A stretch of DNA of 5,565 nt from a virus (taxonomy: Duplodnaviria; Heunggongvirae; Uroviricota; Caudoviricetes): positions 1 through 5,565 of IMG/VR virus record IMGVR_UViG_2531839474_000014; one strand, 5' to 3'. Within the stretch, counting starts at the first letter, position 1, and each line of letters begins with the position of its first letter. A model generated the notes under the pieces. The model was not told the origin of the DNA. It worked only from the letters and a program-made list of their open reading frames with translations, and searched no databases. Shown here in pieces: positions 1,987 to 3,437 of the stretch. Both the position numbers and the translations under genes were made by a program.

Positions 1987-2491
1987 ACAGGCTCGTGAGG
2001 CTCTGGATGCCTGGATATGTCGACCAGGAATGACACAGGAGCAGGCGACGATATTAATCACTGAAGCATTCTGGGCTTTGAAAGAGCGCCCGAACATCGA
2101 TGTTCAGCGTGTCACAGATGAAGGTGGCGCGGTTGATCAGCGAGCGCTTGGTGTTAATCGAGTGAAGATATTCGAACGCTGGAAGGCTATCGACACCAGG
2201 GATAAGCGTGAAAAGTTCACGGCGCTAGTGCCTGCGATTATGGAGGCTATCCGGATTAGTGATTTCAGGTTGTATCGTGAAATTACTGACGGAAAAAGCA
2301 TCACGTGCATGATCGCCGGGTTAAACAAAGAATATGGCGATGTGGTGGAGTCCGGACTGCTTTTTGCTGATCCTGCCGTAGTGGATCGTGAAACTGACGA
2401 ACTTATAGAAAAAGCAATTGCTTTCAAGCTTGCGTATCGACAGCAATACCAACAAAAAGCTGGATGGAATTATGAGCCTTCTTTTTGCTGA
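1970..2491 (+). CDS. YdaT-like protein (CII-analogue family), 173 aa
   Basis: Overlaps the Cro-like stop by 17 nt, suggesting translational coupling. The segment WKAIDTRDKREKFTALVPAIMEAIRISDFRLY resembles Rac YdaT (WLKGETKTQREKIQKLIPAILAILPRELRHRL) as recalled. Sits where CII would in a lambdoid layout. Confidence 0.6.
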   Translation: MKITPEQAREALDAWICRPGMTQEQATILITEAFWALKERPNIDVQRVTDEGGAVDQRALGVNRVKIFERWKAIDTRDKREKFTALVPAIMEAIRISDFRLYREITDGKSITCMIAGLNKEYGDVVESGLLFADPAVVDRETDELIEKAIAFKLAYRQQYQQKAGWNYEPSFC

Positions 2492-3437
2492 ACGCCCACT
2501 GGTTATAAACACGCAGCTGGCAATGAAAATTGGCTTAAACGAAGCCATTGTTTTGCAACAACTGCACTACTGGTTGAGAGATACCAACTCCGGCATGGAA
2601 TGTGATGGTGTTCGCTGGATTTATAACACAACGGAACAATGGCTGGAACAGTTCCCATTCTGGTCAGAGTCAACGTTAAAGCGCGCGTTTGCAAGTCTGA
2701 AAACGCTGGGGCTTTTGCGTTGTGAAAAGCTCAATAAATCAAAGCGCGATATGACCAATTTCTACACGATCAACTATGGGAGCGAGCTTTTAGATGGTGG
2801 CAAATTGAGCGAATCCATCGGTTCAAAATGCGCCGCTCCATCAGGTCAAAATGACACGATGGAAGAGGTCAAAATGAAACGCTCCATTGGTTCAAAACGA
2901 CTCAATGTCATCGGGTCAAAATGGCCTGATGATCTTACAGAGAATACAACAGAGATTACTACAGAGAATAAAAAGACTTCTCGTCCGGAAGCTTCGCAAC
3001 CGGACCCGCAGACGGTTGAACAGGATTTTTTAACCCGACACCCTGACGCGGTTGTGTTCAGTGCGAAAAAACGCCAGTGGGGCAGCCAGGAAGATTTGGC
3101 GTGTGCGCAGTGGATCTGGGGGCGAATCGTGAGTCTTTACGAGCAGGCCGCCAGCGATGATGGCGAGATTTCGCGACCGAAAGAACCCAACTGGACCGCA
3201 TGGGCCAACGACGTGCGCACAATGCGGATGCTGGATGGCAGAACTCACAGACAAATTTGTGAAATGTTTGGTCGGGTGCAGCGGGATCCATTCTGGGTAA
3301 AAAATATCATGAGTCCGTCAAAGCTTCGCGAAAAATGGGATGAACTGGTTATCCGCCTGGGGCGTTCGTCTGTACAGCGTTGTGTGAATCATATTTCTGA
3401 GCCGGATACCGAAATTCCGCCGGGCTTCAGGGGGTAA
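2472..3437 (+). CDS. Phage replication initiation protein (lambda-O-like organisation) with internal origin and DnaT-like C-terminal tail, 321 aa from the first ATG (alternative TTG start at 2418)
   Basis: Iterons and an AT-rich repeat block lie inside the coding sequence, as in lambda O. C-terminus VNHISEPDTEIPPGFRG matches the C-terminus of E. coli primosomal protein DnaT (...[17 protein letters not shown]) as recalled. Confidence 0.8.
   Translation: MSLLFAERPLVINTQLAMKIGLNEAIVLQQLHYWLRDTNSGMECDGVRWIYNTTEQWLEQFPFWSESTLKRAFASLKTLGLLRCEKLNKSKRDMTNFYTINYGSELLDGGKLSESIGSKCAAPSGQNDTMEEVKMKRSIGSKRLNVIGSKWPDDLTENTTEITTENKKTSRPEASQPDPQTVEQDFLTRHPDAVVFSAKKRQWGSQEDLACAQWIWGRIVSLYEQAASDDGEISRPKEPNWTAWANDVRTMRMLDGRTHRQICEMFGRVQRDPFWVKNIMSPSKLREKWDELVIRLGRSSVQRCVNHISEPDTEIPPGFRG
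2814..2923. repeat. Five direct iterons with core GGT(T/C)CAAAA(T/C)G, ending at 2830, 2853, 2876, 2899 and 2923 (23-24 bp phasing); putative phage origin inside the initiator gene
   Basis: tCCATCGGTTCAAAATG, tCCATCAGGTCAAAATG, gaAGAGGTCAAAATG, tCCATTGGTTCAAAACG, gtCATCGGGTCAAAATG. They encode repeated SIGSK-type peptides in the protein. Confidence 0.75.
2937..2970. repeat. Three 12-bp-phased A+T-rich repeats ACAGAGA(A/T)TA just right of the iterons; candidate DNA-unwinding element
   Basis: ACAGAGAATA at 2937, ACAGAGATTA at 2949, ACAGAGAATA at 2961. Position relative to the iterons mirrors the lambda origin. Confidence 0.55.

Follow-up and report, generated by a model that had tools for sequence, protein, structure and literature searches.

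A lambda-O-like initiator that ends in the C-terminal peptide of DnaT, with no helicase loader gene beside it, in a Qin/dic-type prophage

The window analysed here, i.e. the whole stretch of 5,565 nucleotides (nt) that forms positions 1 to 5,565 of the IMG/VR record IMGVR_UViG_2531839474_000014, is the immunity and replication region of a lambdoid prophage of the Qin/dic type, and more precisely of the 'initiator-only' kind. The genes of the prophage follow each other in the order ydfC, ydfB, ydfA, DicA-like, DicC/Cro-like, YdaT-like, initiator, DUF977 and SMEK-domain cargo (Table 1); the presence of the antisense RNA DicF confirms the Qin/dic-type identity. We are mainly concerned with the initiator gene at 2472-3437, a position that a previous sequence-only reading of the window had given correctly. 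Its product of 321 amino acids (aa) ends with ...VQRCVNHISEPDTEIPPGFRG. The gene is found, covered over at least 80%, in 1799 of 5426 complete E. coli genomes—one third of them—and yet RefSeq gives the same 966-nt coding sequence as 'hypothetical protein'. As developed below, the sequence comparisons describe a lambda-O-like initiator which carries the terminal peptide of the primosomal protein DnaT but is not a member of the DnaT family, and which has no phage-encoded helicase loader as a neighbour.

Table 1. Position of the genes, protein domains and DNA repeats in the window.
Feature	Position	Strand	Basis
DicF antisense small RNA	175-226	-	Rfam RF00039, 76.7 bits vs gathering score 48
DicA-like repressor	1271..1678	-	Pfam HTH_3, E 1.5e-14; dicA in near-identical genomes
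DicC/Cro-like regulator, start of the rightward operon with the initiator	1756..1986	+	Pfam P22_Cro, E 5e-12
YdaT-like gene in the place of cII; 20-nt overlap with the start of the initiator	1970..2491	+	Pfam YdaT_toxin, E 5.6e-5; RefSeq 'toxin YdaT family protein'
Replication initiator gene, lambda-O-like, 'O-only' type, 321 aa	2472..3437	+	Open reading frame list; PHROG 391
N-terminal winged-helix domain (residues 7-105), presumed iteron-binding	2490..2786	+	AlphaFold2, Foldseek, tblastn
Disordered linker (residues 111-170), for which the origin repeats code	2802..2981	+	AlphaFold2, pLDDT 39-47
Array of iterons: CATYRGKTCAAAAYG in four strong copies (2816, 2839, 2885 and 2909), and a degenerate copy near 2862; spacing 23-24 bp	2816..2923		Repeat and pattern searches
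Stretch rich in A and low in GC, bordering the iterons on the right; candidate region of unwinding	2936..2979		GC 0.30
Lambda-O-type C-terminal helical domain (residues 178-296)	3003..3359	+	BLASTP, AlphaFold2
DnaT-like C-terminal tail RCVNHISEPDTEIPPGFRG (residues 303-321), predicted disordered	3378..3434	+	DnaT matches, AlphaFold2
DUF977/Ren-like gene, 140 aa, at the lambda ren position	3478..3900	+	Pfam, PHROG, BLASTP
AT-rich SMEK-domain gene, 299 aa	4153-5052	+	Pfam SMEK_N, E 2e-22; NCBIfam, E 1e-30

The initiator is built of four parts. Residues 17-321 match PHROG 391, 'replication initiation O-like' (E 5e-95), zero Pfam families come out above threshold, and the initiators of phages PhiR42_1, HannyBb and mEp460 share 96-97% identity with the protein. 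In an AlphaFold2 model built on a 105-sequence alignment, the N-terminal domain has a block-mean predicted local distance difference test (pLDDT) mostly of 77-95 and the topology H-H-E-E-H-H-E-E. In the PDB, the fold that Foldseek finds closest is that of the N-domain in RepA_N plasmid initiators (4PQL, 4PT7 and 5KBJ; probability 1.0, TMt 0.5-0.58, E 6e-3), and residues 3-129 share 43-46% identity with initiators of Staphylococcus and Bacillus phages (tblastn). The domain is of the RepA_N/DnaD_N-like winged-helix type, and no Pfam match to the DNA-binding N-domain Phage_rep_O (PF04492) was found in the protein. From this model, the winged helix would be the iteron binder. RepA_N initiators such as RepA of pSK41/pTZ2162 thus resemble the protein of the window by the fold of the N-domain and by the iterons lying in their own gene (the binding being presumed for the window); they differ from it by their unrelated C-domains, their Gram-positive hosts and the absence of a DnaT tail.

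The C-terminal half is that of lambda O: residues 147-294 align with residues 135-270 of lambda O at 35% identity (BLASTP, E 4e-28), and this domain also matches 434 O, phi80 gp15 and the O of Stx phages at E about 1e-18 (tblastn). The helical domain 178-296 is modelled confidently, with a pLDDT of 89-98. The domain has matches in 2971 representative proteins at E<=1e-3; in the PDB, Foldseek matched the N-domain alone and no solved relative of the O C-domain was found. The last residues (301-321) fall to a block-mean pLDDT of 45-59. The same protein is named 'Primosomal protein I' or 'DNA replication protein O' in some phage records, and 'LygF' is an annotation name only.

A family of repeats, of five copies and with a period of 23-24, was returned by the repeat search. 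The iteron pattern gives 4 matches where 0.01 are expected, and 4 was reached in none of 200 shuffles. To the right of the iterons, at 2940-2979, the GC content is 0.30 and the AT skew 0.50, while further right the GC content is 0.55-0.65. An A+T-rich region likewise lies to the right of the iterons in lambda. As both the iterons and the A-rich stretch are found in the DNA coding for the linker, the window has a putative origin inside the initiator gene, as in lambda; the base composition makes the A-rich stretch the candidate opening site. The likeness with lambda O comprises iterons and an A-rich stretch in its own gene, where they encode a flexible linker, a homologous C-domain, and a place in the operon after cro/cII and before a ren-like gene. 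The window differs by having no P gene, and by the DnaT peptide in the place of the lambda tail, ...DLTNTDWIYGVDL.

The C-terminal motif of DnaT, which the sequence-only reading had pointed out, is indeed found by three approaches. Residues 294-321 are identical to E. coli K-12 DnaT 148-179 at 17 of 32 positions (BLASTP in a single comparison, E 2e-8); the NCBIfam DnaT equivalog NF002770 matches residues 300-321 only (E 0.003, 17 bits vs a cut-off of 201); and with phmmer against the PDB the DnaT chains 2RU8, 6AEP and 9ZBT are matched by the last 21-26 residues only (E 0.008-0.03). Over the last 17 residues 14 are identical to E. coli DnaT, and every invariant position is retained. In DnaT itself, the tail is the most conserved part of the protein, the motif I-P-x-G-F-R-G being invariant across 24 enterobacterial DnaTs. 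These scores are modest; nevertheless the match is not due to chance, because the peptide is extreme C-terminal in both proteins and recurs at the extreme C-terminus of many phage initiators.

The likeness to DnaT is confined to this peptide. An alignment of the C-terminal 100 residues or so with DnaT, as had been proposed, holds for the tail and not for the rest. No match to the DnaT DNA-binding domain PF17948 was obtained in the initiator with Pfam at E<=0.1, the initiator of phage SPN1S serving as positive control (E 4e-18). When the initiator and DnaT families were compared by hhalign only 12 columns aligned, all in the tail (probability 32%), so that a possibility we had considered, the O C-domain being a divergent form of the DnaT domain, was ruled out. 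Foldseek against the PDB found no DnaT fold in the model, and no counterpart of the N-terminal oligomerisation domain or of the acidic PriB-binding linker of DnaT was found, the BLASTP and phmmer alignments being confined to residues 294-321. What E. coli DnaT (primosomal protein i; PF17948/NF002770) has in common with the protein of the window is thus the last ~19 residues, including I-P-x-G-F-R-G-COOH. By contrast DnaT possesses an N-domain, the acidic linker and a three-helix domain binding single-stranded DNA (ssDNA; residues 84-153), and is recruited by PriA/PriB and not in an origin-specific manner. Our literature search, in which older work on DnaT was covered only in part, found no paper on the peptide, and 0 for the string PPGFRG.

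How widely this tail is distributed was examined by a tblastn search of the last 25 residues of DnaT against 50,697 phage records. The 49 records that matched are all from Enterobacterales hosts, and in each match inspected the peptide closes a replication initiator at its extreme C-terminus, with the consensus R-D/C-V-N-x-[IV]-S-x-P-D-x-x-I-P-x-G-F-R-G-COOH. The tail is carried by at least six unrelated scaffolds (Rac YdaU, Gifsy O, SPN1S, POCJ13, YfdO and LLS O), with four types of C-domain. Thus Rac YdaU has no Pfam match, and neither have POCJ13 gp16, Tritos gp36 and the Klebsiella prophage proteins; Gifsy-2 'O' has a Phage_rep_O N-domain; the initiator of SPN1S has a true PF17948 DnaT domain; LLS O, which ends with ...VDTKIPEGFRG, and the protein of Pantoea AH07 have Phg_2220_C; the YfdO type and the protein of the window have the lambda-O C-terminal domain (O-CTD). 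Across initiators that are only 25-45% identical the tail stays exactly C-terminal.

Species-representative genomes were also scanned with a degenerate pattern, as a sample and not as a census. Among the matches listed there are at least 41 dnaT genes and at least 16 prophage initiators; the named genera are all Enterobacterales, one metagenome-assembled genome being labelled just 'Proteobacteria', and the matches outside Enterobacterales are open reading frames (ORFs) of 34-54 aa, which we took as chance. The real matches, within this list, are therefore limited to Enterobacterales, which is the clade having DnaT and DnaC. Judged from sequences and models, this peptide has the properties of a portable short linear motif: it is disordered, lies at the terminus, is conserved whatever domain adjoins it, and is present on unrelated proteins.

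Some side observations bear on this portability. The lambda-O-CTD family (P0121-P0269) has alternative C-termini, i.e. IPxGFRG, ..D[FW]xNTDW..G.., ..HWNSxEAWE.. and others including an acidic ..[DE]xx[FL], and the comparison suggests interchangeable, partner-selecting tails. In Escherichia phage 204576 (L003, 3411-4502), a 60-nt tail segment and the DUF977 gene are found behind an unrelated initiator-like ORF, which stops 15 nt before the tail segment and in a different frame; this is a mosaic joint right at the tail, unless a frameshift arose in sequencing. In Salmonella phage SPN1S (L097, 1748-2563), the genuine DnaT domain PF17948 and the tail are followed by no loader gene, and this initiator is relevant to the question of a phage origin of dnaT.

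The second feature of the module is the missing loader. No gene of the lambda P, DnaC or DnaB type was found in the rest of the window, no helicase or loader within 15 kb downstream in a near-identical prophage, and phmmer with lambda P gave nothing in the window or in related loci. The complete phages mEp460, HannyBb and PhiR42_1 carry the same module, likewise without loader, and the tail-bearing modules of phages Tritos and 606R7 are without loader too. The earlier observation that nothing like lambda P or DnaC lies downstream—the next gene is DUF977—is thus borne out and extends to complete phages. As these are complete and viable, helicase loading must use host proteins.

It could be thought that a loader gene was lost through prophage decay and that the tail is a relic of recombination without present function. 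The window does contain a SMEK cargo gene and an unmatched junction at its right end, and in one phage record the segment for the tail lies behind another initiator but not in its frame. However, the sharing of the loader-less module by complete phage genomes means that decay is not the reason for the absence and rules out this origin of it. Besides, a relic fits poorly with a tail kept at the exact C-terminus across the divergent initiators and unrelated scaffolds described above, and with a gene so frequent in complete E. coli genomes. This explanation is largely refuted, and we regard it as very improbable.

Modules of this kind are known, but they are unexplained. Of 314 lambdoid phages, 34 are 'O-only', LLS among them, and how these replicate is described as 'not yet understood' (Genome Res 2025, PMC12315714). 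Like the window, LLS has an O homologue, the tail, and neither helicase nor loader; its O differs by an HTH_36 N-domain and a Phg_2220_C C-domain, so that what is shared comes down to the tail and the loader-less layout only. The tail, DnaT and PriA are all unmentioned in the paper on LLS (PMC12315714), and the shared DnaT peptide appears as a concrete and apparently undiscussed clue to this class. We also observed, in IMG/VR, a second kind of loader-less module, without DnaT tail: in L031-L037 an N-domain ~50% identical to that of the window is joined to an O-CTD and to a C-terminal extension of ~70 aa ending with ..AWNSIWKQ.., and a DnaC- or P-like gene is absent within 3 kb.

The gene that follows a tail-bearing initiator is informative in this respect. 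Taking as downstream gene the one immediately adjacent (-3 to +7 nt), we found among the phage records inspected a DnaC-like gene in 8 (Rac, Gifsy-2, SPN3UB, POCJ13 and four Klebsiella phages) and no loader in 11. For the 72 tail-bearing loci of IMG/VR, the figures are 1 and 71. In the genome scan at least 9 of the at least 16 listed prophage initiators precede a DnaC-like gene and at least 7 no loader. A P or DnaB gene was counted 0 times in each of the three sets. As to dnaT itself, the next gene is in nearly all cases dnaC, at a distance of -3 to +4 nt (at least 41 dnaT genes among the matches listed), whereas O-CTD proteins with lambda-type tails (..NTDW..G.., ..WNSxEAW..) precede lambda P.

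Over residues 1-240, the DnaC-like proteins of the phages share 48-50% identity with E. coli DnaC. For comparison, and as a single contrast, an IstB-like loader beside a non-tail initiator has 31% identity to DnaC, over the AAA+ core alone. The modules of Rac (YdaU-YdaV), Gifsy-1/2, POCJ13 and the Klebsiella prophages thus resemble the window by the same tail and by the DUF1627/DUF977 genes that come after, and differ from it by their own DnaC paralogue directly after the initiator. In POCJ13 gp16 the tail is identical to that of the window and a DnaC-like gene follows, which indicates that this tail functions whether or not a phage DnaC is present.

From these comparisons we propose, with a probability of about 0.5, that the tail is a portable peptide coupling the origin-bound initiator to DnaC-type helicase loading, in the present case by the host DnaB-DnaC. 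The winged helix would bind the iterons and the adjacent A-rich stretch would open; the tail would replace the contact that O makes with P in lambda, and so couple the origin complex to the DnaC-type loading pathway. Its partner would most likely be host DnaC or the DnaB6-DnaC6 complex, and host DnaB would be loaded without any phage loader. A tentative and rather doubtful extension is that the peptide RDVNxxSxPDxxIPxGFRG-COOH is DnaT's own output end, recruiting DnaC-DnaB for the PriA/PriB/DnaT preprimosome, and was copied or exchanged onto phage initiators. For DnaT, it was established that the C-domain docks on PriA and forms filaments on ssDNA, but how DnaB/DnaC is recruited 'remains unknown', and nothing is said there about the tail (Ducos et al. 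2026, PMC13377028). The disordered portable tail being the only element common to DnaT and these initiators, it joins two puzzles, the recruitment of DnaB/DnaC by DnaT and the replication of O-only phages; if true, the extension just given would account for O-only lambdoid replication and also for the strictness with which the DnaT tail is conserved.

Several points weigh against this coupling. The link to DnaC is one of gene neighbourhood only, and a shared ancestry of the dnaT-dnaC and the phage initiator-DnaC modules could yield the adjacency without any contact between tail and DnaC. The N-domain of DnaT, not its tail, was proposed as the recruiter of DnaB/DnaC (Ducos et al. 2026, PMC13377028). 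The modules L031-L037, loader-less and without the tail, indicate that the tail is not the sole solution. A further case is DopC of Cellvibrionales, whose O-like helix-turn-helix N-domain and 'DnaT C-ter motif' make a published precedent for an O/DnaT chimera (Brezellec et al. 2017, PMC5509034): there the motif goes with a P-like loader partner. DopC/DopE, which we compared by their published description, nevertheless differ from the window in that they are chromosomal and domesticated, have no iterons, and work with this lambda-P-like loader partner.

Finally, DNA or oligomerisation may be what the tail acts on. Deleting residues 154-179 of DnaT weakens the binding of ssDNA about threefold, the dissociation constant passing from 9.9 uM (fragment 84-179) to 27 uM (84-153), and lowers the Hill coefficient, i.e. 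the cooperativity (Liu et al. 2014, PMC4132743). It might then be that the tail is an aid to ssDNA binding or to self-association at the opened origin, and that DnaB-DnaC is recruited by another surface, e.g. the O-type C-domain. The Phe and Arg of the tail, residues which we take as typical of ssDNA contacts, would agree with this role. Yet the effect in DnaT is small, and such an aid leaves unexplained why the tail is swapped with lambda-type tails precisely where the partner gene shifts from P to DnaC-like or to none. The occurrence of the tail on four types of C-domain also fits a protein-docking peptide better. We consider this role improbable compared with the coupling to DnaC-type loading.

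The sequence-only reading had favoured helicase loading through the host restart primosome of the PriA/PriB/DnaT type. The dependence on the host stands, as a loader is absent in complete phages, but the PriA/PriB/DnaT route does not follow from it: the DnaT domains are absent from the initiator and the neighbours are of the DnaC type. This route would mean that the tail docks the initiator on PriA (or PriA/PriB), and that the restart primosome loads DnaB, with the initiator replacing or joining DnaT. It is true that DnaT is a subunit of the preprimosome, and that no part of it is better conserved than the tail. RecBCD feeds PriA-dependent restart. The growth of LLS, O-only and tail-bearing, is enhanced by RecBCD (PMC12315714), and the DnaT C-domain docks on PriA HD2/CTD via a conserved hydrophobic surface, the residues of which are not named in the text (PMC13377028).

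The structures, on the other hand, speak against a docking of the tail. In the mature preprimosome (9ZBU) the DnaT chains span residues 1-154 according to the PDB sequence file, in which the crystal fragments span 84-154/159; as the chains stop at residue 154, the tail lies outside the ordered PriA/PriB/DnaT assembly, and it could be free for another partner. The fragment of 4OU6/4OU7 that 'fit the density well' also has no tail. Besides, the initiator is without the three-helix domain, which forms the filament docked on PriA, without the PriB-binding linker and without the N-domain; a recruited PriA would still require DnaT for reaching DnaB-DnaC; the tail co-occurs with DnaC paralogues; and the paper on LLS is silent on PriA and DnaT, as said above. 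The PriA/PriB route is thus less supported than DnaC-type loading, and we hold it for unlikely.

The 140-aa protein encoded just after the initiator had been seen as a possible unrecognised accessory replication factor. We found nothing in support of this, and the protein proves to be a homologue of lambda Ren: it matches Pfam DUF977 (E 2e-30) and PHROG 142, 'Ren-like exclusion protein' (E 3e-46), and over its last 20 aa it shares 50% identity with lambda Ren (BLASTP, E 2e-6). The gene order in lambda being O-P-ren, it occupies the place of ren. It resembles neither lambda P nor DnaC. Winged-helix genes of the DUF977, DUF1627 or YfdN type trail many tail-bearing initiators, with or without a DnaC-like gene between, but LLS and SPN1S, both loader-less and tail-bearing, are without them. 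Because it is a Ren homologue and is absent from these other phages, the 140-aa protein is unlikely to be the missing loader, a role for which we had considered it and which was ruled out. From these comparisons, it probably stands outside the replication machinery.

Other observations concern the remainder of the window. Upstream of the initiator, the YdaT-like gene has a counterpart in database proteins of 448 aa (P0002-P0004) in which the YdaT Pfam family PF06254 and 99% of the initiator are covered together; they are either real YdaT-initiator fusions or annotation artefacts. Downstream, the SMEK-domain gene also matches the PADLOC model Aga_REase-PNTD1-PNTD2 (E 1.4e-20), and by these matches it probably represents cargo of the defence type, inserted behind the ren-like gene. 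In E. coli, the best matches to the window end at 5354. Beyond this point a minus-strand ORF (5389-5565), without Pfam match, runs off the window, and the segment 5355-5565 may be the junction of an insertion sequence or of a rearrangement.

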